Source: Macrostomum lignano (taxonomy: Eukaryota). Taken from it: a stretch of 64,000 bases of DNA. Position numbers and translations under genes: made by a program. The notes beneath the pieces are model-generated. The model saw only the letters and a list, made by a program, of their open reading frames with translations, searched no databases and was not told the origin of the DNA. Every line of letters starts with the position of its first letter. Position 1 is the first letter of the stretch. This document shows, in pieces, positions 17,591-49,935 of this stretch. The stretch spans positions 1 to 64,000 of the forward strand of contig NIVC01001424.1 of NCBI GenBank assembly GCA_002269645.1, read 5' to 3'.

Positions 17591-18176
17591 GCTCACAGTC
17601 AAGCATTTAGCGTTGGAGTAACTCAGCCTAGCTTCTAGACGATACGCTCGTACAGAACATTTGGAACGGATTTAAAAATTTTAGTTTTAGGCACAGCCAT
17701 ATGTAAAAGACTTAATGGGGAGTTTTTAGAAAAAAATGTAACAATTAACTTGCTAACTTGCTAACTCCAGATTCGGTGTTAAGCGACGCGAAAGAATTAA
17801 GGAGGAAATACACTGTGCATGACATGCTTGAAGCAGCTACCGCAAGCAATGGGCTCGTACTCTTGAAAATCTGCATCTTTTTACTGCCTTAGATAGAATA
17901 GTTAAACAAAGGCATCCTGGAATCCTTTGGGCATCCTTACCCACCTCCTAACTAGCTGGCTGAGTCTTCTCCTAAAAGCTATTGTGCTTGCCTACCTTTG
18001 GAAAGTTAGAAGTAATTAATTATTAATCTGTGAGTTTCTCGACAACGCGGAGCTGCAAAGCTATTCGGGGGCCTTACTGTTGATTAGCAACTGAGTGGGG
18101 AGAGTTAGGAAGAGAGAGTTTTCCAGCTTTCTTTTGCTAATTATTGGACACCTGACGTACTCCTTGTTTTTTTGAA

Positions 18177-18543
<367 letters not shown>

Positions 18544-18723
18544 GTTTATGCTAAACTGAATGCTTTCTTTATAACAGTACACGCTATTCCCCACAAACTG
18601 CAGTATGGTATTTCTTCACAAAAACTCTTTTCTAGCTACTACTCAGTAGACGGTCTCTCATATTCTTAACATTTCTTCTTAGACAAAAGAGCAGCAGACG
18701 TGTAGGATTCATAGTACACAGGC

Positions 18724-21146: not shown

Positions 21147-22600
21147 AGTAGTATGAGTTTATGCAACTCTGCCGCACTTGCACTGCGGAGATAGGCGGTA
21201 ATGTAAAAGGATAGGAGGGCGTAAAAGAGCCAGCTGAGATAGCCAATGGAAATAAGGGCGTGGGGTGGGTGTGATTGGCTGGGTGGTGAAACGCTTATGC
21301 AACTCTGCCGCACTGGGGGAGGCAGGTAGCAAAGCAAAGCATCGGAAGGTTTTGGAATAGCAGAGTAAACAAATTAAAAACAAGGTAGGCATGGCGTGGA
21401 AACGTCCACCTCAATTTGTGCCTGGCTCGGCAACTCCTCAGCGTCCCCCACTGTGTTTATCCTATAGAATGTCTATGCACTATTTGTCAGTGCGGAGTGA
21501 AATAGATAAGAGAGAGGCTCTGGTCTTCTTGAGTGTCTGGCTCTGGCGATTCTAATAAATGGGCAATAAACTTTGTAACGGGTGCGGGGCTTGAGTGGAA
21601 AGGGTAGGGTTGGAAGTGGAGGTGAGGTTGGTGGGCTCTAAAACAGTTGTTCAACTCTGCCGCACTTTCACTGTGCAGGGACAGAGAGGTGAGCTCTAAA
21701 AAACAGTTGTTCAACTCTGCCGCACTTTCACTGTGCAGGGACAGAGAGGTGAGCTCTAAAACAGTTGTTCAACTCTGCCGCACTTTCACTGTGCAGGGAC
21801 AGAGAGGTGAGCTCTAAAAAACAGTTGTTCAACTCTGCCGCACTTTCACTGTGCAGGGACAGAGAGGTGAGCTCTAAAAAACAGTTGTTCAACTCTGCCG
21901 CACTTTCACTGTGCAGGTGAGCTCTAAAACAGTTGTTCAACTCTGCCGCACTTTCACTGTGCAGGGACAGAGAGGTGAGCTCTAAAACAGTTGTTCAACT
22001 CTGCCGCACTTTCACTGTGCAGGGACAGAGAGGTGAGCTCTAAAACAGTTGTTCAACTCTGCCGCACTTTCACTGTGCAGGGACAGAGAGGTGAGCTCTA
22101 AAACAGTTGTTCAACTCTGCCGCACTTTCACTGTGCAGGGACAGAGAGGTGAGCTCTAAAAAACAGTTGTTCAACTCTGCCGCACTTTCACTGTGCAGGG
22201 ACAGAGAGGTGAGCTCTAAAAAACAGTTGTTCAACTCTGCCGCACTTTCACTGTGCAGGTGAGCTCTAAAACAGTTGTTCAACTCTGCCGCACTTTCACT
22301 GTGCAGGGACAGAGAGGTGAGCTCTAAAACAGTTGTTCAACTCTGCCGCACTTTCACTGTGCAGGGACAGAGAGGTGAGCTCTAAAACAGTTGTTCAACT
22401 CTGCCGCACTTTCACTGTGCAGGGACAGAGAGGTGAGCTCTAAAACAGTTGTTCAACTCTGCCGCACTTTCACTGTGCAGGGACAGAGAGGTGAGTTCTA
22501 AAACAGTTGTTCAACTCTGCCGCACTTTCACTGTGCAGGGACAGAGAGGTGAGCTCTAAAAAACAGTTGTTCAACTCTGCCGCACTTTCACTGTGCAGGG
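21147..22600 (+). repeat. Left TIR including a 58-bp tandem array (~21637-22600)
   Basis: Inverted match to 37545-38504. Unit GAGCTCTAAAACAGTTGTTCAACTCTGCCGCACTTTCACTGTGCAGGGACAGAGAGGT, with 60- and 47-bp variants. Confidence 0.92.
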
Positions 22601-22829
22601 CGGAGGGCTAGGGTTTGAAGTGGAGGTGAGGTTGGTGGTTTGGGGGGGGGGTAGGGATTGGATGGCAGACAGAGCCATACTGTCTGTGCATATATATTTG
22701 GGGTAATTGTACATGGTGTACACAGGCAAACAGTCTCTGTTTTTTAGAGAGAAGATATATATACGCGCCTAAAAATTCGAAAGAAGCAAGAACGGAATTT
22801 GCGATTGATTTTAATCTCCAAAAAATATA

Positions 22830-25106: not shown

Positions 25107-28100
25107 ACATTCAGCAAGTAGCAAGTGCGCACAACGAAACCCTGGTGGTGTATCGAATTTCCGTGCCAAGCGATGCACCATGTGACCCATTTGAACTCGC
25201 CCGACGGAGCAGGGAAGCAATACAGCGAATTGTATTCGAGAAGATGGCGAATCCAAATCTTTTAGTCAGAGCGCAGCTAAAAATGAGCATCCGAATGAAC
25301 AGAATCCAAGCTGGTGAAGTGGTGAACCAGGAAGAAAGATGGGTAAGCACTCGTTTGCAACCTGTCAATGACGCCGCTTGCTTTGATGATTGGTGGAAGC
25401 AGCAGATTGATGGTTGCGAAGGCATCATTGAGAAGATGAACACAAATGGCAGTGGTTGGGTGATTGTGCGCGTCAACTGCATCGACTTGAACATTGCGGT
25501 TGGTCAAAGACTGCGCTTCTACTCTGGTCACGCAAGCAATTTTGAATTACCTCCTCTGCTGAAGGCAAAAAAAGCCGTCATCAATCCTCCTAGTACTGGC
25601 TCTGATTGTTTTTTGTATGCCTGCCTTGCAGTGCTGCATCACGGTGATGAGAATTTGAGGAAAAACCCTCAAAGGCTTTCTACTTACAAGGACTGGTTGA
25701 ACGATATCAATCTTTCAGGAATTTCCTTACCCGTTGGACTCAACCAGCTAAATCGAATCGAATTACTGAACCCAAGGTTATGTTTTGTAGTTTTTTCTTG
25801 GTCAAGCAGTAACGGTGTCAGTGTGCTGAGGCAGCCACGAGTTGAAGTCGCATGCAGTCGCAAAGTAGTTCTTCTCCTACTATTGAACAAATCAGCTAAC
25901 AAGGATGAAGAGGATAAACACTGGTGCGGAATTGTGAGCCTTGATAGGCTACTAAACAGTAAAAGCGGTCTTTACCACAGAAAATGGTGTGAACGCTGCT
26001 TGAGCTCTTTCGTAACTGATCAGAAGCTAAGTGAGCACAGAGAGCAGTGCTATCGCTCTAATGAGTTTGCTGTCAAGGAACGAGTTCCTACTGAGAAGCG
26101 CAGCGTGCTGTCTTTTCAAAACTACTTCAAAACTATTGAAGCACCGTTCGCTATCTATGCTGATATTGAAGCATTTAATTCTCCGCTAGGCCCCCACACT
26201 CGAGAGGTCATGCATCAGAAGGTTGAGGAAATGGAGGTCAGCGACAATGAGCAAGTCTGCAGCACACGCAGCAGCAGCAGCAGCAGCAGCAGTCATGTAC
26301 AAGCAAGACCAGATGAGGGCATGATAACTGGCAAAACCGTCTTTATTTCCGAGCATCTGCCTGCAGCGGGTGGATTTCTACTCGTTGCTCGTGAAGGCAT
26401 GAAGGGACCACCACTCAAGGATCAAGGTCATGTGAAGTTGGTCTCCAGTTCGAATCCATTGGAGTGTATGGAAACGTTTCTTCATGAGCTGGAACGCGTG
26501 GCTCGAGAAGTCTATGAATGGAACAGAAAGCACAGCTACCAAACGGCTGAAGCAGACACTATTGCTAGTCAAATCTTCAGTGAATCCTCCAACTGTCATT
26601 ACTGTGATCGACAGTTTACTGACACTAATGACAAGCACTATGACCATGATCATCTGACTGGAAAATTCAAAGGCGCCGCATGTTCACGGTGTAACAAATT
26701 AGCGCAACTTCGCCGAAGATTTCTGCCGATTTTTTCCATAATCTCCGAAATTATGACATGCACCTCCTGTTTTCAACAGCGTTAGGAAATATGAAAAACT
26801 GGAAGCTGAGTGTCATTCCTCAGACTTCTGAACGCTATATGTCTCTTCGAGTAGATTTCCCAATCGCCGAAATCACTCTACCGAAAGGCAAAAAGAAAAC
26901 AATTTTCTTCACTCTGCAGTTCCTCGATTCATTCCAGTTTTTAAACGCGGGTCTAGACAAACTGATTCGCAACTTACCTCTCCAGGACAGAAAATTCACT
27001 CAGCAAATGAAAAGCTGCTTTCCAAAGTTAACTAATGAAACTTTGTCTATCAAGGGAGTCTTTCCCTATGATTTCGTCAAATCCCCCGCGAATTTGGCAG
27101 TGACCGAACTTCCGAGCAGAGAAGAGTTTTTCAACTCTCTGACAAAGACAGCTTGCAGTGAGGAGAGCTATGCTCATGCGCGCAAAGCCTGGAAGCAGAT
27201 CGAAGCAAAAAATTTGCACGACTACATGCTTGCCTACCTGCAGCTTGACATCCGTCAACTTGCCGATGTTTTTCAGAACTTTCGCCGTTTGAGTCTCCAT
27301 GATGACGGTCTTGACCCGGCCCACTACTTTACTACACCAGGTCTATCATTTGATTCCGCACTGAAATCCGCGCCAACACCGCTCCAGTTGCTCGACGATG
27401 CTGAGAAGTACAGACTCTTTGAGCTTGGCATTCGTGGAGGAATGACCTTCACGAACGTTCATCATGTTACTGCCGGACCAGTCACCAGTCACCAGTCGTC
27501 AGATGGTGCAGATTCATCAAGCGCAGCTTCTAATGCCGAGACAAATTCTTTGCTCCCCGTAGACATGAATAATCTCTACGGGCAAGCGCTGTCCGAAAAA
27601 CTACCCGTCAGTGACTTTGAGTGGCTTAGTGAAGAAGAACTGTGTGAATGGACAGAAGAGAAGCTACTTAAATTGGATGACGATGGTCCAGTTGGCTACC
27701 TATTTGAGGTTGATCTGGAATATCCAGATGTAATCCACACGCAGACACAAGATTTGCCATTTGCCCCCGAGAAGGCCGCGCCTAAGCTCGAAGAGTTTCC
27801 GCCATTCATGAAACGTCTTTGGGGCGAATTGAACACTCGCAACGAGCCGTACAAAGGCTGTGTGAAACTTTTACTCACATGTCATGACAAGGAATCCTAC
27901 GTCGTGCATTTCCGAATTTTGAAGTTCTACTTGCGTCACGGTATGCGACTAAAAAAGGTCCGAAGAGCTATTCGATTTTGTCAAGCTGCAATTTTCCAAG
28001 CCTACATTGACAGAAACAGCAAAAAGCGCTCAGTGGCTACAACGGAATTCGAAAAAGACTATTACAAACTGAAGAATAACTCCCTGTTCGGCAAAACGAT

Positions 28101-28943
28101 GGAAAACGTACGGAAGAGGCTCAGTGTTCGAATTTCTAACAATGAGGAGCAGTCAGAAATCTATTCATCGCGTCCGAATCTTAAGGACTTTACGATTGTG
28201 ACTCAAGACTTAGTAGTTTTTCAATTTTTCAAGACTTCAGTCACTCTTGACCGCCCAATCTACGTTGGTCAATGTGTTTTAGATGACTCTAAGCTGGCGA
28301 TGTACCGATTGTACTATGGAAAGCTAAAGCCAACATTTGAGAATCCTGCTCTCCAACAAGGAGTTTCCCTATGCGGTGGGGACACCGATTCCTTCTTTCT
28401 GTGCTTTAAAAACATCGATGTTCAGAGTGCTGTTCTACCAGAACTCATTCGCCAGCGATTGCTAGATACCTCAAACTTCCCGGCCGACCATCAATTCCGA
28501 TCCGATGATCTAAAAGCCAAGTTAGGCTGCATAAAGGACGAATCTGCAGGCAACCCCATCGTGAATGGATCCTTTTGAGACCAAAACTATACTCGATGAA
28601 GGCCGAGTCTGGAGGGAAGAAGGCAGCCAAAGGTGTTCAGAAGAGTGTGCTGCGGGCAGAAATCACACACGATGACTACATGCAGGCGTTTGCCAGTTTG
28701 AAGGAGCTTCGCGTCTTAACACGCAGAATCGCTAGCCGACGACACAGAGTAGTCACTTTAGAGCAACAGAAGCGTGCCCTGACTGTATGGGAGGACAAGC
28801 GTGCGTGGACTTCCCCAAACCAAAGTCTTCCGTATGGGCACTTTGCTCTAAGAGACCCCTGCCGCCACAGCTGCCGCCGTTACAATCGAGAAGCACCTCA
28901 ACTAGCTGCTGATCAGGCTCCCAAGCAAATGAGGATGCAATAA
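25107..28943 (+). CDS. polB: Protein-primed family B DNA polymerase with an endonuclease VII-like insert; two apparent -1 frameshifts
   Basis: Motifs CHYC...DHDHLTGKFKGAACSRCN, PIF(F)HNLRNYD, FLDSF, KGVFPYD, DPAHYFTTPG, GIRGG, DMNNLYG, KLKNNSLFGK, GDTDS, LRPKLYS and KAAKGV. Frame breaks at ~26730-26735 and ~28562. Confidence 0.95.
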
Positions 28944-29276: not shown

Positions 29277-29861
29277 TTATTTTAGTTGCATAAGTGTGTT
29301 AACAGAGCGAAACAGGGAAGAACTGTCCGATTTTAGCATACGCAGAGATTTTGCCCCACTTAGAATATAAGAAGCATTATGAAAAAGCAAGCATTTACAA
29401 TACTTAAGTTGACAAACTAAAGCTGAAAATGTTTCTGGTTCATACTGGGCTTTGGGCAAAACTTTAACAAGTTCAGTAAGCGGTAGCGCATTTTGGAGCT
29501 TAAAACGTCCATGAGCAGTAATAGTTTTAATTCGAACACAAATTGTTTGATGAGGCAGCAGTTGAGCCGGCACTCTCCGATGCAGCATAGCCACGAAGCG
29601 ACGGGCAGCCCTTTTGGCGTCTGCGTGGGTCTTGGCACCACAGATGCTCAGTTGCCCAGTAGGGTAGAGTAGCAGAGTCACTCTGGGACTTCGCATCCGC
29701 TTGATGAGCACCCGGGGCCAGACGGGCCGGTAGATCACATGAGCCATGCTGAGAGCCAGTTCCCGTAGAGGCAGCTGGGCGCCCCTGCCACCATCCAGTC
29801 TCAGATCCACTCCGCCAACCAGATTGGTCACTCTTAGGGCTGTAGCTGCAGGTGGACTCAT
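29277..29861 (-). CDS. Divergent TATA-binding-protein (TBP)-like protein, 194 aa, intact
   Basis: Two-repeat TBP core: RVTNLVGGVDL; LPLRELAL...YRP...RMRSPRVTLLLYPTGQLSICGAK...AKRAARRF; LPLTELV...YEPETFSAL...LLFHNASYILSGAK. These parallel TBP IQNIVSTVNL / [23 protein letters not shown] / YEPELFPGL / LLIFVSGKVVLTGAK. Confidence 0.88.
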   Translation of the reverse strand: MSPPAATALRVTNLVGGVDLRLDGGRGAQLPLRELALSMAHVIYRPVWPRVLIKRMRSPRVTLLLYPTGQLSICGAKTHADAKRAARRFVAMLHRRVPAQLLPHQTICVRIKTITAHGRFKLQNALPLTELVKVLPKAQYEPETFSALVCQLKYCKCLLFHNASYILSGAKSLRMLKSDSSSLFRSVNTLMQLK

Positions 29862-30378
29862 TTCGATCCTTGACTTCTTCACCAAATCTTCTGCCAACTT
29901 CACTGCCCCTGTGCCACGGACACTGCTCGCTTCTTAAGTTGATGCAGAACTTTGGCTTAAGCCAACTGTAGTGCAGCAATGAATTTCTCACTGCACAGCC
30001 AGTATCTGAATCTTCAATCGAGGGTGCTCCCAAATCTTCTAGGTTATAAACCTGTCTACCAAGCAGCTCAGTCAGGAAAATAGACTTCCTTTCCCCATTT
30101 GTCCAGATCGGACCACTGGCAATCCTCAGAATGTCTTCCGCCAGTTCCATGTACGGACGGGTTCCATCATTCCACTTAAACTGGTGCAGACTCTTTGATA
30201 GCTGTCTGTAGCAAACTCGCATGTCAGGTGAGACTCTCTCCCATGGATACGGAGGTGCGTACACATGGTGAGCAATTCGGTAGCTTCCCGCTCTGACTTG
30301 AACAACTGCCAACTCTTTCACAACAAATTTTTTGCTTGTGCTGTTGCACGGGAATCCTTGGAAGTCAATGTAGTTCAT
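29527..30378 (-). CDS. Conserved Polinton-type ORF with a DEDD/RNase H-like exonuclease-type N-terminus; the real protein probably ends near 29935
   Basis: YIDFQGF...FVVKELAV...PPYPW...HQFKWNDG..PY...VYNLEDLGAPS...CAVRN. The C-terminal ~140 aa overlap the TBP ORF in another frame. Confidence 0.6.
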   Translation of the reverse strand: MNYIDFQGFPCNSTSKKFVVKELAVVQVRAGSYRIAHHVYAPPYPWERVSPDMRVCYRQLSKSLHQFKWNDGTRPYMELAEDILRIASGPIWTNGERKSIFLTELLGRQVYNLEDLGAPSIEDSDTGCAVRNSLLHYSWLKPKFCINLRSEQCPWHRGSEVGRRFGEEVKDRNESTCSYSPKSDQSGWRSGSETGWWQGRPAASTGTGSQHGSCDLPARLAPGAHQADAKSQSDSATLPYWATEHLWCQDPRRRQKGCPSLRGYAASESAGSTAASSNNLCSN

Positions 30379-30406: not shown

Positions 30407-31097
30407 TCAGTTCCCCTTCTTATATACTTTTCTTCCGGGCAGTTTCAGCCAGGCTGTGTTGCTGCCGTACCCCTTGACTAGACTCGCCTGTTCTTTCTCC
30501 AGTTCACTCCCTCTGCTGGTTGCCATTTTCTTTTTAACTGATTTACCAACAGCGGAAAGCGGAACATTAAGCTTTTTCTGCTGCAGCAAATCGATGAACT
30601 CGTTCCAGCCAACTGGTTCACGCTCACATGGCGAATCCCTCACTGCGTGCTGAATCAAGTCCAGTATGTTTGAGGAAGGGATTGACGTGCCTGCGATTTC
30701 CACCTCTCCGTTTTCACAAACTCGAATCAGCTCTGGATTGGTGGACAGGATCGTCCATAGACTGCGAGCCCTGGTTTTGAATTTCTGTGGCACCGACTTG
30801 CTGATCTTCTCTTCCCAGGTGTTCATCTGTGGTGTCTCTGTTTTCATCAACTTGGCTTCAGTATTGCGTGCTCCTTCTTTTCCAGCGTGCTTGCGTTGGC
30901 CAGCAAACTTTGCATTGCACTTTGATACATGGCGGTTTTCACATCTTCTGGACAATCTTCGGCATACAAGATATCATCGCATTTCTTCTGAGCCTGCTTC
31001 AAGTTAGCGTCAGTGCTATCTCATTTGGCTTCAAATTCTGCATCAACATCTCATACTCTGCTTTAGGAATCAGAACCATTTCTGAAAATTTGTTCAT
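30407..31097 (-). CDS. Conserved Polinton morphogenesis-module ORF of unknown function (frameshifted)
   Basis: MNKFSEMVLIPKAEY... and ...VPQKFKTRARSLW...NGEVEIAG..IPSSNILDL...PVGWNEFIDLL...NVPLSAVG, a pattern typical of Polinton conserved proteins. Two frame breaks. Confidence 0.6.
30419..30426 (-). promoter_or_regulatory. TATATAAG box upstream of the exonuclease-like/TBP-like unit
   Basis: 48 nt upstream of the ATG at 30378; the identical octamer precedes the PC4 gene. Confidence 0.5.
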
Positions 31098-31400
31098 TTT
31101 GCTTCTTCTTCTTTACCAGCTTAAGCAGAATCGGGAGTATTTTAATGAAGCCAGCCTTCAACAAGTCTGTCTTTCTTCTTTTGTGAGTAATTTTCGAATT
31201 ATCTCTTTTGACTTTGCAAGAACAGCTTTTTCATCGAGCGAAAACGATAGATTGTTTTGTAAGAGATTATGGCAGGCCTCGACAAGAAAATAACGCACTT
31301 CTTTTGGACAATTTTTTATCAACAGCCGCTTGAAGCGCACGGTATATTTAGGTGACGCAAGAACCGCAAAAAGACTTGCATGTGAATCAAGCACTTCCAT
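31060..31400 (-). CDS. Small conserved Polinton ORF (basic, core-protein-like; one frameshift)
   Basis: RLLIKNCPKEVRYFLVEACHNLLQNNLSFS...IIRKL, then after +1 A: KRRKTDLLKAGFIKILPILLKLV. Confidence 0.55.
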
Positions 31401-31442
31401 AGCGATGAAAACAATAGCTGATAAAAAACAAGCTTCACTTTC

Positions 31443-32087
31443 TTAAGCAAATACAAGATGGGGTCGCTGGTTGGGCAAAATTCTGGCCCGCACTCGCAGC
31501 TCATCGGGAGTTGATGGGTGAAAGTCTAGGAACAGGTAGGCTCCCCTGCTGCGCGGTCACGTGCTTGAACACTGACAGCAGAAAGCCGGGCTTCTCTGTA
31601 AAGCACTGCCTGCCCAGTGCTGCAATCTGCAGCTGGTCTCTGGGGTTTTTCAAGATAGCTAAGTACATTACATTCAAGCTCATTGTTCGCGACTCTTTTC
31701 CCTTAAAAAATATATTCTGAGTCAGCATCACCAAAAGCACGGCAAGTGATGTGCGATTCCTGTGAAAAAATTTCGCATTGAAGCAGAGTTTGAAGTTTCC
31801 TCTATTAAGTCATCGAAAACAACCAGGTCATTGGGCCTAAGTGCTGCCTCGATGTTGGTGGGAAATCCCTGGCGCAGCTGCACACCTAGGCTGCTCAGTT
31901 CTGCATGGCCTGCCTGTGAGATCCCATAGTACCACAGAACTCTGCCAGGCTTCACATCAAACATGACGTCTCTGTACTGGATCAGGTGTTTGACAAAGGT
32001 TGTTTTTCCTGCATTGGTGGGCCCGCAGACAATCATGCAGCTTCCCTGCCTGAGGCGGATATCGTAGCAAACTCGCTTTTCTTCCAT
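31443..32087 (-). CDS. A32/FtsK-family genome-packaging ATPase (frameshifted)
   Basis: Walker A GPTNAGKT, Walker B LVVFDD, AHH, TQNIFFKG, RTMSLN, KNPRD and LDFHPSTPDELRVR. Frame breaks at ~31743 and ~31545. Confidence 0.92.
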
Positions 32088-32110
32088 GTCTAATGCATAA
32101 ATATTAGAAA

Positions 32111-32619
32111 TCACGCACATCTTTTTCTTAAGTTGGCTTCAAACCTCTGTAAGATTCTATCATTCAAATGATTTTTTTCATTAGCATGCAAATGCTTCAA
32201 AATCCCCTCAAATGACCGATTGAACAGAAACTTTTGATAAGCAAAATAGATGCAAAACATTCCGCATTTATTAGAGTTAGCACATTGAAATCTGTTTATA
32301 TTGCTTCGGAGCCAAAAGCCAGTTGTTTTAATCTCTCGAAACAAATTATAAACCACAGATAAAATTTCAGGTTCCCAGCCGAGGGAGTTGAACAACTCAA
32401 TGCAATTTCCTTGCCCAACATAGCACACCACCCAATGACCAAATGAACCATTGTGCTGTAGTAGAACAAAAACAAACTTATTTTCAAGGAAATTGATCGA
32501 TATTTTCTTTTTAGACTCAAAGGCAAAACATTTTTATAGCGTGAATGTAAAGTAATGATGAGAAATTTTCGGCAAGACAAAAATTTTCTGGCGAGATTAA
32601 GTAGTTGAATTGCGTCCAT
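32111..32619 (-). CDS. Adenain-like cysteine maturation protease (frameshifted)
   Basis: GHWVVCYV, FNSLG and Q..NSNKCGMFCIYF, giving the His...Cys catalytic motifs. Confidence 0.88.
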
Positions 32620-32624
32620 GCCAA

Positions 32625-33901
32625 TTAAGAGGAATAGTCCAGCAAAAGCTCCCGGTGCTTGGTGACCTCAATCAGCGAGTCATACAGGCACAGAGCGATC
32701 AGGGACACCGTTTCGTCCAGAGCCTGTCGGAAGCGAATCTCCAGCCGCAGGTTGCCCTCCTTCTGTCCGTACCACAGAGCCGCTCTCTCTGGTGTGAGAT
32801 CGAATGCAAACACCGTGTTGTTGTTGGAGAAGAGCTGGTAGGGGATCCACGGGACCGAATTGCTTGCAGATTGACAGCTTTTCAGGTAGTGCAAGTATTC
32901 TCTTACAAAGGAATTGTTTTCAGGTGTGAAGGCGCCGTGGCACACGGTCTCTCCACCTTTCTTTAGAGCCAACCGGCTGAGGTTGAAGCTCTGGAACTGG
33001 AACGGACTCGCGTGATGATGACCGTTGAATGCTCGGTGGCTCACGAAGGCCAGCATGATGAACTTCGGCAATTTTCCATGAGTGAATCCTTCAATGTTTT
33101 TAGATTGAATGCCCTGGGGTAGGATGAAGTTCTGCATTTCAGTTCGCTCGATGGGATACAGTGCATTTTGGTTTGTCAGCCCCTGCTCGTGAGCCAGGCT
33201 GATGTGGGCACCACTTTGACTCGGCGAAGATGCAGAATGCTGTGAGAGATTTCCATGCGATAAGCCGCGTTGTTTACATTCGGGGTTCTGATGGCAAAGG
33301 CCCCATCGCTGGGGACCAGTTTGATGTGCAAGTGCAGATTGCTTAGCAGAAACACTGGGCACTGGAAAACATCGCTGAAGAGCGGCCCCGCATACTCCAT
33401 CCATCGGGATTCCCTGTGGCTCTCCGTGTGCTCTTCAGCTGCAGAGTCCGGCTCCAGGAAGCCAGCAGGGTAAAGTTTTAGTTGCTGGGCATCAGATGAG
33501 CTCATTAGTGCTTTGAAGTACGCATGGTAGGGATAGAGCTGGTCTCCACCAGACACCACTCGCTGGTTAATGCTCACAATTACATCTGAGAAGGCTGTAG
33601 ACAGAACAAAGTTTTCTGGGTGCACATCACTGTCTCTGCGCTCGGTGATGATGCCATCTCCATCTCGAACATCCTCCCTCAGCAAACCCCCATCCAGTCT
33701 CACAAGGCGGCAGCGAATATAAAGAAAAGAATTCAGCAGATCTGTGTATTCATCGGCAGATTGGTGGCAGTCAAATTCAATGGGGGAGTTTGCAGTAATG
33801 GAATTAACTGGGTGAATATCAACATAAGTAGCTTTTTCAATGCAGGTTTGTAGAACGGGCGTTTTAAATAAATCAAGTCTGGGATTGAATCCGTAAGCCA
33901 T
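32625..33901 (-). CDS. Double jelly-roll major capsid protein (one frameshift at ~33207)
   Basis: LDLFKTPVLQTCIE...IHPV...PIEF; YPYHAYFKALM; GPLFSDVF; GKLPKFIMLAFV...FNG...PFQFQ; FAFDLTP; GNLRLEIRF...DSLIEVTKHR. Confidence 0.93.
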
Positions 33902-33903
33902 GT

Positions 33904-34293
33904 CTATGACAGAGAGTCGAGCACGCGTTTCACAGTTTTCTTGCTGACTTTTTGCTTTCGCTTTCCTCCACCTGCTCTATTCTTCTTTGCTTTCGTCTTC
34001 CTATTCTTAAGCTTTTTCCTACTAGCCTTGCTCGGCTTTCTTCCATTGGACCTCTTATTGGGGCGATCGCCACCAGTTGCCTTTCGGGTGCGCTTCTTCT
34101 TCTTCAATCGTTTCGGACTTGCTTCAGTATTTCTTTTGCGCCTGACATTGCTAAGCGTTGAGGATAATGATGTAGCCGCTGGAGGAGGCTGGTATGTCAT
34201 GATCCCAGGAAAGCTCCCACAGCCATAGAGTGCAGGCTTTTCGTGTCCTGTCCTCACCCCCGAATATTGCTGGATCAGCTGCTGGTAGTTCAT
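33904..34293 (-). CDS. Lys/Arg-rich putative DNA-condensing core protein (129 aa)
   Basis: ATG ORF between penton and MCP. N-terminal YGCG/QYSG glycine motifs and a strongly basic C-terminal half. Confidence 0.7.
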   Translation of the reverse strand: MNYQQLIQQYSGVRTGHEKPALYGCGSFPGIMTYQPPPAATSLSSTLSNVRRKRNTEASPKRLKKKKRTRKATGGDRPNKRSNGRKPSKASRKKLKNRKTKAKKNRAGGGKRKQKVSKKTVKRVLDSLS

Positions 34294-35117
34294 TGAATGC
34301 GTTTCTCCCGAATCTGAACTGTGAGCAGAACAGGGCTGTGAGTCTGTGCAATCAGTGGGCAACCATAGATGTCCCGCAGCTGAACTCGAATGCTGTGGAG
34401 AAGACTGATTCGTTGAATCGGGAAGAATATTGTTTTCTTAAATATTTTTGTTTGATAGTTGCCCCATTCAATGCCAGCTTTCATTCCAACTGTTCTCAAC
34501 AAGGAGCCCCAGTTGCAATTAGTTGACTCAACGACACTGCAGTGTACATTGATTAAGCTGGTGCGCGGACAGCCAATGCAATGCTCGGACACGCGGCTCC
34601 CTGGCTGGATTTTCACAGCCTGGTTTCCAAATCCCAGCCAATGCAGAATTTTGCTGGATGGGAGAAACAGCTCTGCTCTCGCAGTGTTGTTGTGCACCAC
34701 AGTTCGTGAGTTGCGGATTTCGAACTTCATACCAAATTCCCTGTTGCCACTACGCCCCATCAGGCCGGACTCATCAGCCTCCATCTCAGACTCCCTGTCA
34801 CTCATCGCATCAAAGAACAGCGAATCAGAGTTGGCCAGCAGCTCATTCAGGCGCTCCACCAGCTCCTCCACTCTAGCAAAGCGTCCGGGTTGAAGAACCA
34901 GGGCCTCATGCTCTCTTCCATCTGAGACAGTGAAGCAGTAAGGCTCGTCAACATTGAACCATGCAGCAGGCAGATGGATTTCAGCCAGACCTGCCTCATA
35001 GTCCACATTTCGATCCAAGTAAATAGGTGAAGACAGGTAAAAATTAAAGTCACTAGGAGTACCTTCAGCATGCTCACTGTTAATCAAAATAGTTCGCATT
35101 ATAAAGATAAACTTCAT
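34290..35117 (-). CDS. Minor capsid (penton) protein, intact
   Basis: PSDFNFYLSSPIYL...YEAGLAEIHLPAAWFN; PGRF; INVHCSVVES; FFPI...SIRVQLRDIYG.PL. Confidence 0.88.
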   Translation of the reverse strand: MKFIFIMRTILINSEHAEGTPSDFNFYLSSPIYLDRNVDYEAGLAEIHLPAAWFNVDEPYCFTVSDGREHEALVLQPGRFARVEELVERLNELLANSDSLFFDAMSDRESEMEADESGLMGRSGNREFGMKFEIRNSRTVVHNNTARAELFLPSSKILHWLGFGNQAVKIQPGSRVSEHCIGCPRTSLINVHCSVVESTNCNWGSLLRTVGMKAGIEWGNYQTKIFKKTIFFPIQRISLLHSIRVQLRDIYGCPLIAQTHSPVLLTVQIREKRIQ

Positions 35118-35147
35118 GATGAGGGATGTGCCAAAGCTAAACCTTTC

Positions 35148-36203
35148 TTAAGTTTTTTCATCCACCCAGCCAGTCGAGTCGTAGCCGGCCCACTTCACCA
35201 GATAGCGAATTTTTCCCTTCCGCTTCTCCGTTTTCAGGATCTTCTCAATCACATACAGCCGCTGTGAGTCCGGGACAGCCTGCAGCTCGTGCTCATGGAA
35301 GAGTCCTCGAATCTCTTCCCCCCGCATGTCTTTAATCTTGTACATGTAGGGATAATGTTTTGGGGCTCTGCTCACCACGGTGTACACTTCCTCACTCCAG
35401 CTCGCTTTGTATCCCTTTTTGAATAGCCGTGGAGCATTGGAAATTCTCACTGACTGGTTTTCAGCGAATTTAGGCTTCCTTAATTTTTCTAGAGTCTCGA
35501 CTGCTTTTCCGTCGTACAGGTTCATCCACACTTCAGATTCATTCTCTTTGCAGACACTAGTGGGTGCCATTTTGATGCTTCTGTGATAGGTATTGTTGTA
35601 AGATTTTACCAGCTTAGGCAGCACATCAAGCCAGTGCAGTGTACTCTTGTAGGTGAAGTAGCGCCACATTCTACTTTTCAGAGTTCGATTCCATCGCTCA
35701 ATGACAGCCGCCTTCTGCTCGCTGTTAGTTGGGAAAGCCAGAATCCCTCTGTCAATGCAGTATTGACGGAAAGTGGAGTTGATAAATTCCTTCCCCTGAT
35801 CTGTGCGAACTGTGCGTGGCTGGCGCTTTGAACTTCTCAGTATGCTCTCGAATGCTGACTTCACTTCTGTAGCAGTTTTATTTTTCAGTGCCTTGGCCCA
35901 AGCACACTTTGACAGTACGTCAATACATGTAAGAATATATTTGTAGCCTTTATTATACTTTGCGAATGGAATCATTTCTACCAAGTCAAGTTCCCACTGA
36001 TCATCGATAGCCCGCACTATGATTGGGGCCCTTGGATATCGCCTCCTAGCTGGCTTGTGTAGGGTGTGCACTGGCTGCTCACTGAGCCACTGTTCTATGC
36101 ACTTAGTGGATATGCGATCTCCTCTTCTCCTAACTTCATTCAACAGTTTGGAAGCACTAGAAAAACTAGCCGGCTGTTGTGGGTCAAAGTAAATTTTTTC
36201 CAT
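35148..36203 (-). CDS. Retroviral-like DDE integrase with C-terminal chromodomain, intact
   Basis: WELDLVEM, IDVLSK, RTDQGKEF, VIERWNRTLK, YHRSIKMAP, FKKGY..SWSEEVY and YVIEKIL...YLVKWAGY. Confidence 0.96.
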   Translation of the reverse strand: MEKIYFDPQQPASFSSASKLLNEVRRRGDRISTKCIEQWLSEQPVHTLHKPARRRYPRAPIIVRAIDDQWELDLVEMIPFAKYNKGYKYILTCIDVLSKCAWAKALKNKTATEVKSAFESILRSSKRQPRTVRTDQGKEFINSTFRQYCIDRGILAFPTNSEQKAAVIERWNRTLKSRMWRYFTYKSTLHWLDVLPKLVKSYNNTYHRSIKMAPTSVCKENESEVWMNLYDGKAVETLEKLRKPKFAENQSVRISNAPRLFKKGYKASWSEEVYTVVSRAPKHYPYMYKIKDMRGEEIRGLFHEHELQAVPDSQRLYVIEKILKTEKRKGKIRYLVKWAGYDSTGWVDEKT

Positions 36204-36571
36204 CCTCAAATGAAAAAGAACCAGATGTACACAGGTATGTTTTTCTTAAGAACAACGATTGGCGTTTTAAAAGACAGGTTTTATTCCAATATTAAACTCA
36301 TACAGCGTACACTTATTATATTTTTTTAACTTAGGGACTGCGAACAGTTGGTGATCTTAAAAAGAAGATTGCAGGAAATAGTTACACTGAGTAGTGCAAA
36401 TAAGTATAAACTGCATGCATTTAAGTATAAACTTGGTTTGTTAACACCTGAATAAATAAGACTAAACGGTTACGACAATTGTCAAAACTTAACTTAGCTG
36501 AATAAAATTAGACAAAAGCAAACCAAACTGAATTATCCTTTGAGTCTCATCAGTCTCATCCAACCTCCAGC

Positions 36572-37303
36572 TCAGTCTTCAAAACGCAGCTTAGACACCT
36601 TCATTGTCTCCTGCCTGCGCAGAGGATACGGCAGTTTTCGCTTCCGATTGTTCTCCACCTCAGCGGCATGAGCCCGGAATCGGTACCACACCGGATCCTG
36701 CTGTAGGTCCGTGTCCTCCGCCGGGATGTTCCCAGTCGATGTGCCGGCTCTGGCCAAAGGTGTGGAAGTCACAGCCTCGATGTCGGTTGTCAGCTCCGAT
36801 GGTGAGCCGACCTCCTCCTCGCCTTCAGCAGCCTCAGTCTTGACCGGCAGTATGAGGGTGGCGTCTTCGTCCTCATCTTCGGATGAGCTCAGCTCGTACT
36901 TCGCCCCCGCACCTTGGTAGGGCTCTGATAGCTGCTGGTCTATCCAGTCCGAAGTCTGCCACAGCTTCTGCCAGAGCCTCGGAGACAGCGGCACGGTGTT
37001 GCGCTTCATAAATTCATCACAGCAGTCCTCAGGCAGCCGCTTCAGCCAGATGAGGCCATCCTTGACTTGAACAAATTTGTCGAAGCCCAGCTTGATGACC
37101 TTGAGCTCGTTGTTCAGAGCCGACTTCACCAGGGAGCGCTTTAACTCCTTTAGCTTCGTCCACTGCTGCACATTCAAGTTGAAACCAGGAACACCAGGCT
37201 TGAGGCTTGCTGTGCTGCCATGTCGGTAAAACTTCCTGATCGCGATGTATTTCTGGCCTTCGAATTCTTGCACCTGCACTCTGTAACCTTCACTAATATC
37301 CAT
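36572..37303 (-). CDS. PC4/Sub1-like protein (one clear plus one degenerate PC4 domain, acidic tail), intact
   Basis: YRVQVQEFEGQKYIAIRKFY...KPGVPGFNLNVQQWTKLKE matches the PC4 core. Second repeat LGFDKFVQV...IWLKRL...TVPLSPRLWQKL. Confidence 0.85.
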   Translation of the reverse strand: MDISEGYRVQVQEFEGQKYIAIRKFYRHGSTASLKPGVPGFNLNVQQWTKLKELKRSLVKSALNNELKVIKLGFDKFVQVKDGLIWLKRLPEDCCDEFMKRNTVPLSPRLWQKLWQTSDWIDQQLSEPYQGAGAKYELSSSEDEDEDATLILPVKTEAAEGEEEVGSPSELTTDIEAVTSTPLARAGTSTGNIPAEDTDLQQDPVWYRFRAHAAEVENNRKRKLPYPLRRQETMKVSKLRFED

Positions 37304-37387: not shown

Positions 37388-37395
37388 CTTATATA
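37388..37395 (-). promoter_or_regulatory. TATATAAG box upstream of the PC4-like gene
   Basis: About 90 nt upstream of the ATG at 37303, just inside the right TIR array. Confidence 0.55.
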
Positions 37396-37544: not shown

Positions 37545-38504
37545 GCCCACCTCTCTGTACCTGCACATTAAAGTGCGGCAGAGTTGAACAACTGTTTTAG
37601 AGCTCACATCTCTGTCCCTGCACAGTGAAAGTGCGGCAGAGTTGAACAACTGTTTTAGAGCTCACCTCTCTGTCCCTGCACAGTGAAAGTGCGGCAGAGT
37701 TGAACAACTGTTTTAGAGCTCACCTCTCTGTCCCTGCACAGTGAAAGTGCGGCAGAGTTGAACAACTGTTTTAGAGCTCACCTCTCTGTCCCTGCACAGT
37801 GAAAGTGCGGCAGAGTTGAACAACTGTTTTAGAGCTCACCTCTCTGTCCCTGCACAGTGAAAGTGCGGCAGAGTTGAACAACTGTTTTAGAGCTCACCTC
37901 TCTGTCCCTGCACAGTGAAAGTGCGGCAGAGTTGAACAACTGTTTTAGAGCTCACCTCTCTGTCCCTGCACAGTGAAAGTGCGGCAGAGTTGAACAACTG
38001 TTTTAGAGCCCACCAACAACCTCACCTCCACTCCAAACCCTACCCTTTCCACTCAAGCCCCGCACCCGTTACAAAGTTTATTACCCATTTATTATCAATG
38101 CCAGTCGCGCCAGAGGCAGACACTCAAGAGCGGAGCCTCTCTCCGCTTAGAGTTGCATAGGCATTGCTATACAATAAGCACATTGGAGGATGGTGAGGAG
38201 TTGCATAGGCCAGGCACAAAATTGAGGTGGAAGTTTCCACGCCACGCCTACCTTGCTTTAATTTGTTTACTCTGCTATTCCAAAAACCTTCCAATTCTTT
38301 GCTTTGCTTTGCTACCTGCCCCTCCCAGTGCGGCAGAGTTGCATAAGCGTTTCACCACCCGCGCCGCCCAGCCAATCACACCCACCCCACGCCCCTTATT
38401 TCCATTGGCTATCTCAGCTGGCTCTTTTACGCCCTCCTATCCTTTTACATTACCGCCTATCTCCGCAGTGCAAGTGCGGCAGAGTTGCATAAACTCATAC
38501 TACT
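37545..38504 (-). repeat. Right TIR including ~8 copies of the 58-bp unit (~37545-38010)
   Basis: Reverse complement of the left TIR. The outer ~105 bp are identical; the inner part has indels. Confidence 0.92.
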
Positions 38505-38510: not shown

Positions 38511-38967
38511 CTAGATATTGCATATAAATCCAAGAAAAATCAATCAACATGAAGGCAGTCTTGCTCCCGACGTCTCGCATCATAGCAGCTCAAGAGTTTG
38601 CCTTTGTCTGTGAGTTCAGGCAAATTAGCTAGCTCGCGTTTTAAGAAGCTCACTAGCAATCTTCCCCTCTCCCCGTTCGGAAAGCAACAAGAGAAATAAA
38701 AAAACATCTGGATAAACTACATTACCATTTTTCCATCTGCGTTCACCATTGTTATTCTCTCAGGAAAATGACGTTTAAAGGAAAAAAGCATCCACCCGGA
38801 ACGCCAACTGTCTGGCCTAGAATATCAGATGTTCCAGGAGCTTTGGCTCTAAGCATGTGAATAACTCCAATGAGCCAACGCATTTCAGAAATTCCCCCTG
38901 TTAGCGTTGACATCCTAGCTATTTTCCCCATGTGTCTTTTACGGTCGAAAGGGCGATTCTTATATGG

Positions 38968-39810
38968 TTGACATGTCGCTTCTTTTCTGTTAGACCATGT
39001 CGCTTCTTTTCTGTTTCACCATGTTGCTACTTTTATGTTTCACCATGTCGCTTCTTTTATGTTTGACCATGTCGCTTCTTTTCTGTTTCACCATGTTGCT
39101 ACTTTTATGTTTGACCATGTCGCTTCTTTTCTGTTTCACCATGTTGCTACTTTTATGTTTGACCATGTCGCTTCTTTTATGTTTGACCATGTCGCTTCTT
39201 TTATGTTTGACCATGTCGCTTCTTTTATGTTTGACCATGTCGCTTCTTTTCTGTTTGACCATGTTGCTACTTTTATGTTTGACCATGTCGCTTCTTTTAT
39301 GTTTGACCATGTCGCTTCTTTTATGTTTGACCATGTCGCTTCTTTTCTGTTTGACCATGTCGCTTCTTTTCTGTTTGACCATGTCGCTTCTTTTCTGTTT
39401 CACCATGTTGCTACTTTTATGTTTGACCATGTCGCTTCTCTTATGTTTGACCATGTCGCTTCTCTTATGTTTCACCATGTTGCTACTTTTATGTTTGACC
39501 ATGTCGCTTCTTTTCTGTTTCACCATGTTGCTTCTTTTATGTTTGACCATGTCGCTTCTTTTATGTTTGACCATGTCGCTTCTTTTATGTTTGACCATGT
39601 CGCTTCTTTTATGTTTGACCATGTCGCTTCTTTTACGTTTGACCATGTCGCTTCTTTTCTGTTTCACCATGTTGCTACTTTTATGTTTCACCATGTCGCT
39701 TCTTTTATGTTTCACCATGTCGCTTCTTTTATGTTTGACCATGTCGCTTCTTTTATGGTTGACCATGTCGCTTCTTTTATGTTTGACCACGTCGCTTTTT
39801 TATGTTTGAG
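38968..39810. repeat. 24-bp minisatellite, ~35 copies
   Basis: Unit TTTGACCATGTCGCTTCTTTTATG with variants. Confidence 0.96.
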
Positions 39811-40353
39811 AAGCGCTTTTATGTGACTCAGCAGCCGCTGAAGAATAGTTCTGCCAAATTTCATATACTAGCTAGTTTATTAACTGATCGGAATGTAGAG
39901 AACTGTAAATCATCATAACGCACTACTTTGAAGTAATATTCTAATAAAATCTATTTAAACAGAAGTGACTCAGAGCCCTACGGTAGGACCAACGTTTTTT
40001 GATCAATCAAACATACGCGACCTAAGTAAATAACGGGGTTTAAATCAGTTTTCCACCAAAATTTTACTATAAATGTAGGAGAAAATCCGAGTAAAAAAAA
40101 TCAGACTCAGAGCGGTCTCAAGCAATACCTTGTAATACGTTAACTAAGAAGATCCATATCTCCGAGAGAAGAAATCCGGACAGATTGGTAAGCGTTTCCC
40201 GATTTAGTTCTTTGCTATAGCACAAATAAGTTGATAAATTGAGTTTATGAGAGCCACTTATTGTCGACACATTTGAGAAAGGCCTCCTTGTTTCCTAGGA
40301 TACATTCCTAGAGGATTTATTGATTTGAATTGAGTTATCCGTTGCGTTTCGGA

Positions 40354-42060
40354 TGTAACGAAGAAGATGCCCTTCAGGAGGACTTGTTACAGATACGAAA
40401 ATAATTCAATTGTTCATAAGGGCGTCACGTTCTATTGTGAATTCCGAGCTCGAGGACCGTCAAGAATTCTGATTCGCTCTCGTTTTGGTCGACCCACAGA
40501 TAAAGTTATGGACTCCAGAAGACAACAGCTGTTCACAGGAACCAGCTGCCGCCACCGCTCAGCAAAGCGAGCCAGCCCTACAAACAACAGGACTCCGCCG
40601 AATACCGACCGCAAGAGGATCCGCTACAGTAAGAGTTATTCGATTTCGTATATACCTAGGCATTTGTTCCCCTGTGTAAAAGTGGGAGATATTGAGTGAC
40701 TGATCACCACTCAATATAAACTCTTCAACTGGTGATCTCGCCCAGGCCTAACTCAGGCTCGATCCCAGGCCTAACTCAGGCTCGATCCCAGGCCTAACTC
40801 AGGCTCGATCCCAGGCCTAACTCAGGCTCGATCCCAGGCCTAACTCAGGCTCGATCCCAGGCCTAACTCAGGCTCGATCCCAGGCCTAACTCAAGCTCGA
40901 TCCCAGGCCTAACTCAGGCTCGATCCCAGGCCTAACTCAGGCTCGATCCCAGGCCTAACTCAGGCTCGATCCCAGGCCTAACTCAGGCTCGATCCCAGGC
41001 CTAACTCAGGCTCGATCCCAGGCCTAACTCAGGCTCGATCCCAGGCCTAACTCAGGCTTGATCCCAGGCCTAACTCAGGCTCGATCCCAGGCCTAACTCA
41101 GGCTCGATCCCAGGCCTAACTCAGGCTCGATCCCAGGCCTAACTCAGGCTCGATCCCAGGCCTAACTCAGGCACGTCAGGCTAAATCATTCCAGACCAGG
41201 CGAGACTGCTAAAAACACCTGGACACAAAATAAAATTTATGCATTGCGTAACCCTACTGAATTTTTCGTGCCGGCCTACCATTGTTTGCATATAAACCCT
41301 ATGATTCACCGCACAACTCAGCTGTTCAATTTTGTGAATATCTCATTATTTCAATCACCCCCTTTCTCTTTGATAAAGTCGTTATATAGAAAATTTTGCC
41401 CTCGCCTTTTTCGCTTCCTCCTGAGTAAATAACAGCCGCGCCCGCACACACACACACAACACACACCCCCCACCCATTGCTCACCACTTTGAGAGGTCAA
41501 TCTGGAAAATCCTTTGGAAATTGACCCCAATCTTGACTTTCCACCATTTCCATTTGAAAATATGGCTCGAAGAAACCCTACAGTGCATCGTGATGTTAAT
41601 GAAACTGTTGGAATGTATACCATGGATAAGGACTTTAACACCTTCATTGAACACTTTGACCTTGTAACTCGCGAAAACGGACTACTACAAAATCTAGAAA
41701 AGGCACTTCTTCTTCCTCCACTGCTAGAAGGTACTGCTCGAGAAATTTATGGCAAACTAAATGCTCCTGCCCAGCAATTCGCCAGATGGGGAACCAATCT
41801 ATCTGTGCTTCTACACAAACTTCATTATCGAAAAATGAGTCCGACGGAATCCTAGCTTCCCTGCAATTACCTTCGTCGATGATGTTCGCAAAATTATTAA
41901 AGCGTTGCAATTGCACCAGCCACCACCACCGAACCCATGAGCTCAACCTATCGGACCAGCAAAACTAGCTGCACGAGAAAGACAACGCCTTGCTGATCGA
42001 GAACAAAGCCTAATCCTCCAAGTCATTAATAATGCTCAACCTTGTCTGCGAGACAGGTTG
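40354..42060 (+). mobile_element. LTR retrotransposon remnant: putative 5' LTR (40354-40727), PBS-like TGG, degenerate gag
   Basis: TGTAAC...CTCTTCA followed by ACTGGTGATC. The ORF at 41562 (DFNTFIEHFDLVTRENGL...KALLLPPLLEGTAREIYGKL) resembles a Ty3/gypsy gag N-terminus. No pol and no second LTR seen. Confidence 0.5.
40741..41172. repeat. 23-bp minisatellite, ~19 copies, in the putative LTR-element leader
   Basis: Unit CCCAGGCCTAACTCAGGCTCGAT. Confidence 0.96.
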
Positions 42061-43875: not shown

Positions 43876-44586
43876 GGTTATTTAAAAAATTCTTTTAAAA
43901 GTTCGTCTCTTCCTCTGCCTTCTTACAGCTCCACAACAACGTAAGGATAAAAACAGCCAAGCAAAGAGACGATAAAACTGAGCAATGAGAGATGTCCTGA
44001 GATCACTTCTCAAAATCCATACCGGTATAAAGAAGAATTACCATAGTAACCACTCGAGACTGATTGCATCCGACTCAGATAGCTATAGTAGCACATATGA
44101 ACTACTCTTTTGTTGCAATGAATTGAGTAGTATGACATTCTTGCTTTCAATTTGTAGCGCCTAGACAACAGATTGCGTATTCTGTGAAGATTCTGTGTTT
44201 GCAGATCCCCCTGGCAACGGGACGAGATCGGGCCGGCCGGGAGACAACTTAGACGACGATGGATATGGCCCCGGACCCCCGGAGATGAGCAGCAGAACGC
44301 ACAGTTGACGGGAAATTGACGATAAGTTCAGCGAGAGACAGAAACCCAGGAAAGGGAGCGCCGCATCAAACTCAACCAATGCTTTAAACTCGCCACTCCA
44401 CCGCCCCTGCGAGGGCAGAGCGCTCTGGGGCTGCGTCCTTAACCAGGGGCGTCGCCAACGGGAGGGGGGACAGGGGGACATGTCGCCTCCAGTAAAAGAT
44501 CTGAGGGGACATGCCAATGCTTTGTCCCCCCACCCCTACCTTGTGGCCCGTTGTGAAAATCAATAACAATTGCTGCATGGTGACAA

Positions 44587-45608: not shown

Positions 45609-45676
45609 CACCGATTCCGAAAATAATGTAAGTAGTATGCATGAGGGGGCTTCCAGGACAATTTTTGTTAAATCTC

Positions 45677-48312: not shown

Positions 48313-48427
48313 AAGCAGCACGCGAACCCGAGAGTTCTAAGAGAGAATGAAACGCTTTGAAATGTTCCACAAAAACTTTGATAGCGTTCCCTGATATTCA
48401 ACATCGATTTCTGTTACACAAAGCAAA

Positions 48428-49900: not shown

Positions 49901-49935
49901 TTCACTCCGAAGTGGTATAGGGAATTTACGAGTAT

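Follow-up and report, generated by a model that had tools for sequence, protein, structure and literature searches.

Polintons carry putative capsid genes, and how these genes are switched on, and hence whether and when the elements act as viruses, is an open question. The window, a stretch of 64,000 nucleotides from the genome of Macrostomum lignano, contains a Polinton with a reading frame that resembles the TATA-binding protein (TBP). This locus raises the question of whether the element encodes a genuine TBP of its own and, if so, which promoters such a protein would serve.

A TBP gene within the element

The element is 16.6 kb long, with inverted ends at 21510 and 38143 that contain 58-bp arrays, and it includes the following features.

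21510..22600 (+), left terminal inverted repeat, 58-bp array, inner edge approximate
25244..28943 (+), protein-primed DNA polymerase B (pPolB; PF03175), in three pieces here
29277..29861 (-), TBP-like gene, core only, intact here (ORF translation, Pfam, PDB matches, AlphaFold2/Foldseek)
29527..30378 (-), exonuclease-like (exo-like) ORF, frame extending 111 codons into TBP
31501..32120 (-), packaging ATPase, in pieces here (weak P-loop Pfam matches only)
32625..35117 (-), putative major capsid (two pieces), basic core-like and minor capsid genes
35148..36203 (-), rve integrase with chromodomain (Pfam)
36572..37303 (-), PC4-domain gene (Pfam)
37570..38143 (-), right terminal inverted repeat, 58-bp array, inner edge approximate

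Several hallmarks of Polintons are present, with Pfam matches to pPolB (PF03175, E 3.5e-16) and the integrase (PF00665, E 5.4e-13), and with terminal inverted repeats (TIRs) at both ends of the window element and likewise in a second family of elements (family 2). The ATPase and the protease gave only sub-threshold P-loop, C48 and C5 matches to Pfam, and their order and similarity across families fit these assignments. The ORF at 29527..30378 has no match in Pfam or PDB and is called exonuclease-like after a DEDD-like motif at its start, and the genes in 32625..35117, for which Pfam (jelly-roll proteins) gave no match, are those that we take to encode the capsid and core proteins from the Polinton gene order. 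The element has pPolB, rve integrase and TIRs, together with putative ATPase, protease and capsid genes, in common with Polintons, Mavericks and adintoviruses (Starrett et al., PMC8502044).

In the window copy, the genes for pPolB, the ATPase, the protease and the putative major capsid protein are broken. Contigs of four public runs have small indels relative to the window in the right arm, so some of the breaks may be specific to this copy or represent assembly errors. No 6-bp target-site duplication was found at the ends of the window copy, where the flanks differ, which a chimeric copy would explain. The flanks just outside the terminal repeats (21444-21500 and 38150-38190) resemble each other in inverted orientation, and the copy may be chimeric or inserted in a preferred repeat. 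Host tandem arrays surround the element (10807-12354, 18092-18700, 38852-39950, 40649-41269, 44459-45700, 48293-50000 and 52049-53795, with periods of 78, 9, 24, 23, 21, 23 and 107), along with dispersed repeats of 200-250 bp.

The 194-residue frame at 29277-29861 (-) is open from its ATG through to its stop in the ORF list and has inverted repeats on both sides, as claimed in the initial annotation of this locus. The profile PF00352 matches it in two stretches (E 4.9e-21; 74.8 bits, cut-off 22.9), so the profile check proposed at that time came out far above the cut-off, and all 35 sequences matched by phmmer in PDB are TBPs or TBP fusions. Each of the two repeats ends in GAK in the window copy, again in agreement with the earlier description. 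The AlphaFold2 model of the protein (pLDDT 95.6, pTM 0.87) has the saddle fold, with TBPs filling ranks 1-44 in Foldseek (TMq 0.74-0.83); the model is not independent of TBPs, since ordinary TBPs were present in its input alignment. This structure comparison excludes a protein without the TBP fold, an outcome that the initial annotation itself had named as a refutation, and the ORF is confirmed as a real TBP within a TIR-bounded Polinton.

The protein shares with cellular TBPs (PF00352; PDB 1CDW, 1YTB, 1MP9) the two-lobed saddle (TM ~0.8), the first Asn, both Phe residues of the C-lobe, the Glu-Pro-Glu stirrup that contacts TFIIB, and the GAK ends. It differs from them in being only 22-28% identical, reduced to the core and present in about 150 copies on a mobile element, and in having Pro in the first Phe slot, Tyr for Phe in the N-lobe, Thr for the second Asn and for Val, and Ser for Pro in the C-lobe.

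A search of the M. lignano genome yielded 151 TBP matches from the 150 candidates that were scored out of 232. Among the near-full-length matches of the family to which the window copy belongs (family 1), 94/98 are stop-free by hand count, and in the fetched loci the exo-like gene is located upstream in 30/30 and pPolB downstream in 26/30. Pairwise Nei-Gojobori estimates of dN/dS for the N-lobe range from 0.05 to 0.23 in 10/10 pairs of the window copy with other family-1 copies, pairs that are not independent, and from 0.15 to 0.36 for the C-lobe in the seven divergent pairs with a computable dS. The TBP gene is under purifying selection and is no one-off capture. The about 150 matches and the low dN/dS values exclude a single, neutrally evolving copy, the second outcome listed beforehand as a refutation.

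The TBP of family 2 is 37% identical to that of family 1, compared to 50-56% for pPolB and the integrase, and it is again encoded directly after the exo-like gene in a TIR-bounded element. A more distant set of Polintons (group 3; pPolB 31% identical) has a TBP-like gene on the same strand within 13 kb at 45/59 ATPase loci. As a query, the group-3 protein has no match in Pfam. A profile gave E 7e-8, with 67 matches found; the group-3 alignment matches TBPs in PDB (best E 2.8e-9) and aligns to families 1 and 2 with a probability of 97%, and TBPs fill the top 44 Foldseek ranks of the model, at a TM of only ~0.45. The element thus has a dedicated TBP, as had been claimed, in the sense of a selected gene that recurs across Polinton groups. 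No Polinton without TBP was found: group 3, which was intended as the control, carries the gene, and L050 is too decayed to be scored. The link drawn below between TBP and a promoter-like box therefore has no negative control.

In one group-3 subfamily (L065 3-1190; also L063, L064 and L067), the TBP-like frame continues stop-free into a deoxynucleoside kinase (dNK), and Pfam recognizes TBP and dNK in one frame, which is either a fusion or a pair of in-frame neighbours. Fusions of the exo and TBP frames and similar fused frames (P0008, L013, L043) were discarded; each is limited to one or a few copies and looks like the result of copy-specific indels. Group-3 TBP-like frames (L052 1090-1110; L057-L062, L065) have no ATG at the start of the domain and a pyrimidine-rich CAG just before it, which from its sequence looks like a cis- or trans-splice acceptor. 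The C724/C2542 type of group 3 (L058, L069 and L071; ~30 copies) has an internally deleted pPolB and otherwise open genes, TBP included, and is possibly non-autonomous. Group-3 Polintons also contain dUTPase and dNK genes (L049 3754-4623; L052 1728-2407) and an ORF with a weak match to adenovirus protein X (mu). The integrase of family 2 (L046 ~6840-6950) seems to contain a short GT-AG intron with a branch-point-like CTAAC.

A phylogeny was inferred from 36 rows, leaving out most of the unnamed homologues. Families 1 and 2 are sisters in this tree (100/98) and are located far from host TBP, with long branches. AU tests rejected a grouping of the two families with host TBP (p 0.0002) as well as with host TRF2 (p 0.029), the row of which is a long branch, while a single clade of families 1 and 2 with group 3 was neither shown nor rejected (p 0.108). 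Descent of the element TBP from host TBP is rejected by the tree.

Within family 1, the gene is a mosaic.

29505..29512, mosaic junction inside TBP at codon 117-119 (common N-lobe; subfamilies differ in the C-lobe and on the pPolB side)

The junction is located at codon 117-119 in 8/8 family-1 pairs that share the window-type N-lobe but not the C-lobe, and past it dS exceeds 1.1 and pPolB identity drops to ~60%. Contigs from three of the four runs, representing three studies, leave the window sequence at 29507, and the junction is therefore not an assembly artefact. Near-identical N-lobes are followed, from about the same codon on, by at least nine distinct C-lobes whose synonymous divergence is saturated (L016, L017, L019, L034, L036, L037, L039 and L040, beside window 29505-29512), and the C-lobe type travels with the pPolB allele in the mosaic copies; the mosaicism may reflect a hot spot or selection on chimeras. 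The exo-like frame is open across the first 107-129 codons of TBP, in the -1 frame, in both families (window 29527-29861; L031 2696-3084). This overlap exceeds that of synonymous shuffles (P 0.002-0.03 in four lineages), and in family 1 the frame ends in ATTAAA just before the junction.

A shared box upstream of the right-arm genes

Comparison of the 160 nt upstream of each start codon identified a box with the consensus WTAAGAA, which is listed here together with the partial and TATA-like sites.

22756..22763 (+), TATATATA box, candidate early promoter, before left-arm ORF1
29931..29938 (-), CTTAAGAA box, 76 nt before the TBP ATG, within the exo-like ORF
30417..30424 (-), TATAAGAA box, 45 nt before the exo-like ORF
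31118..31125 (-), CTTAAGCT, partial box, before the upstream ATG (31097) of the orf146 gene
31440..31447 (-), CTTAAGAA box, 46 nt before orf80
32125..32132 (-), CTTAAGAA box, 11 nt before the first and 44 nt before the second Met of the packaging ATPase
34004..34011 (-), CTTAAGAA box, 109 nt before the putative major capsid gene
34435..34442 (-), TTTAAGAA box, 148 nt before the basic core-like gene
35145..35152 (-), CTTAAGAA box, 34 nt before the putative minor capsid gene
36243..36250 (-), CTTAAGAA box, 46 nt before the integrase
37388..37395 (-), TATATAAG, TATA-like box, candidate early promoter, before PC4

WTAAGAA precedes 8/10 genes of the right arm, namely those for the integrase, minor capsid, core, major capsid, ATPase, orf80, exo and TBP. 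The genes without it are orf146, which has CTTAAGCT, and the protease gene, which abuts the capsid stop codon and has no box in family 2 either. All eight coding-strand sites of the 7.3-kb right arm are located 11-148 nt before a start, compared to 1.4-2.4 sites expected under Markov models, and the opposite strand contains two. No WTAAGAA was found on either strand of the left arm or in the terminal arrays of the window. Corrected for word choice, the enrichment over the 10 genes has a P of 0.0003 for 7-mers and 0.006 for 6-mers. WTAAGAA is not a rare word, as shown by 14 sites in 47 kb of host flanks; its position is the unusual part. The box was rejected as a stop-codon artefact, the upstream stop being overlapped by only 1/8 window sites. 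It falls in different codon frames across genes and families, and the box of the TBP gene is kept inside the exo frame in subfamilies with an exo dS to the window of ~0.9. The spacing between box and ATG is variable, from 11 to about 160 nt, and no initiator signal was seen at +25 to +35 after the box in 28 aligned sites.

The box recurs in the other elements. With the word fixed beforehand, WTAAGAA precedes 6/10 genes in family 2 (P 0.001) with a strand ratio of 7:0 in favour of the coding strand; near matches are present before the ATPase, orf198 and TBP, and two of the family-2 sites are TATA-like. In group 3, TATAAG, a word picked after inspecting another group-3 copy, precedes 6/7 genes of the C2542 copy (P 0.00015), and the strand counts of TATAAG(C) are 7:1 and 10:0. 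The group-3 boxes start with an intact TATA, and host TBP might read them. The presence of this box before most right-arm genes, with its recurrence in family 2 and as TATAAG in group 3, is new here.

Ordinary TATATA boxes are found in front of PC4 and in the left arm. The PC4-domain gene is located behind a terminal TATA box in both families (window 36572-37303; L031 1364-1801), and the genome contains 107 PC4 matches, many of them ~7.5 kb from a TBP copy; the PC4 product may be a coactivator or may bind single-stranded DNA. The initial annotation suggested that the element TBP redirects Pol II initiation to the element's promoters or acts as a decoy for host TBP partners, and it proposed TATATAAG for a binding test. 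This word is found only before PC4, and it is WTAAGAA that provides a candidate site for such redirection. A shared, altered TATA-like box before most structural genes suggests that the element steers host RNA polymerase to its own late genes.

Residues facing DNA and TFIIB

The element TBP has neither the four Phe nor the two Asn of the canonical patterns. Repeat 2 (the C-lobe) retains both intercalating Phe residues, while the Phe slots of the N-lobe hold Pro and Tyr. The first central Asn is kept (Asn13), and the second is replaced by Thr113 in 17/17 rows from families 1 and 2. The two Phe of repeat 2, the Tyr at the fourth-strand Phe of repeat 1 and the change of the second Asn to Thr had all been read correctly from the window. 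The assignment of Trp to the first Phe slot is an error, or at best lacks support: in the HMMER, MAFFT and hhalign alignments alike, Pro49 occupies this slot and Trp48 falls on the preceding Arg, and the position aligned to Trp48 contains His in family 2 and Arg/Lys in group 3. A slip of one residue at Trp48/Pro49 is possible in these alignments. The proposed likeness to TRF2/TLF did not hold either. TRF2/TBPL1 also combines the TBP fold with altered Phe slots, but the host TRF2-like protein keeps both Asn residues and is altered in other slots, and its clade with the element TBP is the one rejected at p 0.029.

Families 1 and 2 are identical at 18/32 DNA-facing positions, taken from a list in yeast numbering, compared to 45/144 positions elsewhere (p 0.013), and the DNA-face count is lowered by MAFFT having misplaced the first stirrup of family 2. 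The changes common to the two families include F116Y, K120Q, T124C, T73G, Q158K, N159T and V161T (yeast numbers). Residues that are both shared and unlike host TBP are not significantly enriched at the DNA-facing sites (10/32 versus 25/144, p 0.088). Group 3 likewise has Pro in the first Phe slot as well as Tyr-Pro, with Ser/Thr at N159 and Thr at V161. Judging by known TBP-DNA structures, the smaller, polar N-lobe residues could accommodate the G at position 6 of the box. DNA bending may be weaker with one intercalating Phe missing. A proline in TBP favours T at position 1 of the TATA box, according to the available text of PMC12529657. This proline is replaced by Ser, Thr or Asn in 17/17 rows of families 1 and 2, the boxes of which often begin with C, and is kept in 7/7 rows of group 3, the boxes of which begin with T; the pattern is one contrast, not a statistic.

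A pair of Glu residues in the C-lobe forms the contact with TFIIB/TFB/Brf, and viral TBPs usually lose this pair and bring their own TFIIB (PMC7221094, in the part available). Both residues (E141 and E143) are kept in 17/17 rows of families 1 and 2, and group 3 has Asp-Ala-Glu at the TFIIB-contact stirrup. No TFIIB was matched by Pfam among the 17 ORFs of the window. TFIIB searches of the genome gave 15/23 and 6/51 candidates, all of which are low-copy and host-type, with none among the listed Polinton loci; a very divergent TFIIB could escape these searches. The core of host TFIIB is split by an intron at the fetched locus. The helix of the N-lobe that binds TBP regulators is basic in family 1 and acidic in family 2.

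A probable late-promoter factor and its alternatives

We propose that TBP is a long-standing core gene of these Polintons and would act as a minimal, re-specified initiation factor for late genes. PC4 and the terminal genes of the left arm would be expressed early from ordinary TATA boxes readable by host TBP. The element TBP would bind the non-canonical box (C/T)(A/T)TAAG(A/C)A before most of the structural, packaging, integrase, exo-like and TBP genes, and the retained Glu pair of the C-lobe would recruit host TFIIB and hence Pol II. We regard a late-promoter factor that uses host TFIIB and Pol II as the probable role of this protein. The family-1 TBP gene is itself located behind a box, so a priming route is needed. 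If this reading is true, the element TBP should prefer CTTAAGAA over TATAAAAG, and host TBP the reverse. None of the runs that contain the sequence is recorded as RNA. In four putative-RNA runs from four studies, 28-30/30 bins are covered, but the depth tracks copy number and was not counted as expression. The NCBI name of P0001 has the form of names in an RNA-built gene set, as given in the available text of PMC5730564, and we take this inferred link as a hint only.

By analogy, the element TBP most likely works like the late TBP of beta- and gammaherpesviruses, such as ORF24 of KSHV, which acts at TATTWAA late promoters. The proposed likeness consists of a more polar DNA face, a non-canonical late box and the use of host Pol II; ORF24 is, however, large, retains four Phe, lacks the glutamates for TFIIB, makes its own contact with Pol II and depends on five further viral factors (available text of PMC12529657). 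The element protein, in contrast, is only a 194-residue core without the Pol II-binding N-terminal domain and vTA complex of the ORF24 type and has kept the glutamates. The similarity lies in the fold and in the proposed way of working, and the element is not part of the herpesvirus system. The TBPs of Nucleocytoviricota are also virus-encoded and divergent, and structural matches in BFVD are weaker than those to cellular TBP. They often occur together with a viral TFIIB and have diverged adapter residues (PMC7221094, in the part available), whereas no TFIIB or RNA polymerase was detected in the element. The late promoters of baculoviruses and nudiviruses have the same TAAG core before late genes. 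They are read by a viral RNA polymerase of four subunits that initiates within the motif, and the element encodes no such polymerase.

The most serious alternative, although an unlikely one, is that the boxes are weak TATA variants for host TBP/TFIID or host TRF2, and that the element TBP acts as a competitor or decoy, titrating away TFIIB/Brf1 or other partners of TBP and damping host or early transcription. The invariant TFIIB glutamates, the TATA-like boxes of group 3 and of two family-2 sites, and a C-lobe that is swapped among subfamilies and has a highly variable outer surface, as expected of a host-facing surface, would all be consistent with a decoy. However, a decoy has little reason to fix a changed DNA-facing surface across families that are only 37% identical, CTTAAG and CATAAG are without TATA, and the opposite charges of the regulator-binding helix in families 1 and 2 leave no common decoy surface. 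Considerably less probable is that TAAG is read by a helper virus with a late polymerase of the baculovirus/nudivirus type, or by another protein of the element, with TBP having a separate job. TAAG is invariant in 28/28 aligned sites, though by site selection, two sites are located just 11 nt before the first ATG, and virophages and PLVs reportedly share promoter motifs with their giant-virus helpers. Against this, both of the 11-nt sites have a second Met 35-44 nt from the box, most other distances are at least 34 nt, which fits a TATA-type position, and TBP is present in every group with the box.

It is also improbable, and slightly more so than a helper, that TBP binds element DNA at the replication origin, at the terminal arrays or for packaging, with the boxes as a post-transcriptional signal. 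The C-lobe moves with the pPolB allele in the mosaic copies, and the group-3 TBP gene lies beside dNK and pPolB and runs into dNK in one subfamily, as such a role might predict; yet the TFIIB-contact glutamates are kept, and the boxes fit promoters in their strand and 5' position, with none in the terminal arrays of the window. Passive cargo, in the form of a recently captured and decaying copy of host TBP or TRF2, would agree with the several other broken genes of the window copy but is already refuted by the many copies, the low dN/dS, the three deep groups and the AU tests that reject a host origin, and it has hardly any probability left. The late-promoter reading remains the preferred one.

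A broader reading, to which we give nearly but not quite even weight, is that a minimal TBP belongs to the ancestral core genes of a broad lineage of animal Polintons and has been overlooked, often being too divergent for Pfam, and that it co-evolves with a family-specific box (CTTAAGAA, CWTAAGAA, TATAAGC) as a two-part late switch in need of only host TFIIB and Pol II. If true, unclassified Polinton ORFs of other animals may be such TBPs, and the exchange of a single TBP lobe between subfamilies would tune host contacts and leave the N-lobe untouched. Among the described viral uses of the basal machinery, a self-encoded TBP with a matching box would be the smallest, in which one protein of 190 residues shifts promoter specificity and keeps the contact to the host adapter, unlike the systems of herpesviruses and giant viruses. 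A self-encoded TBP with a matching box offers a concrete and cheap test of how Polintons switch on their capsid genes, in a flatworm host for which transgenesis tools are apparently at hand, and the natural series of TBP and box variants is a ready data set on the rules of TBP-DNA recognition.

The possibility that the gene is unreported, raised in the initial annotation, holds in part. A TBP label is present in the legend to a figure of adintovirus-like elements, in a section on non-animal datasets, and the available text of that paper contains no family-wide analysis, residue analysis or cognate promoter for it (Starrett et al. 2021, PMC8502044); one of its supplements gave no TBP match. Beyond this legend, nothing on a Polinton TBP or its promoter was found in a search that covered the text of openly accessible papers. 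TATA matches in PMC10675990 (mirusvirus-like elements) and in the reference list of PMC12220804 are unrelated.

The named relatives of the ORF at 80-89% identity are M. lignano proteins, and outside the M. lignano genome assembly, relatives were obtained from Logan/ENA/JGI (P0002-4, P0009, P0017 and P0160-62). Scans of viral and metagenome contigs gave no true relative, and L048 was rejected as a chance match. An IMG/VR contig (L047 7076-7672) contains a TBP gene between the terminase and portal region and looks like an archaeal tailed virus. Matches in the protein atlas are to TBP clusters only, with recognition scores below the threshold, and serve as leads only. Short, core-only TBP-like proteins (P0049, P0135, P0059, P0093, P0034, P0020, P0023 and P0199, the last named from a pseudoscorpion) branch near the Polinton TBPs; several of them share the Asn-to-Thr change, and they are candidates for Polinton TBPs of other hosts.
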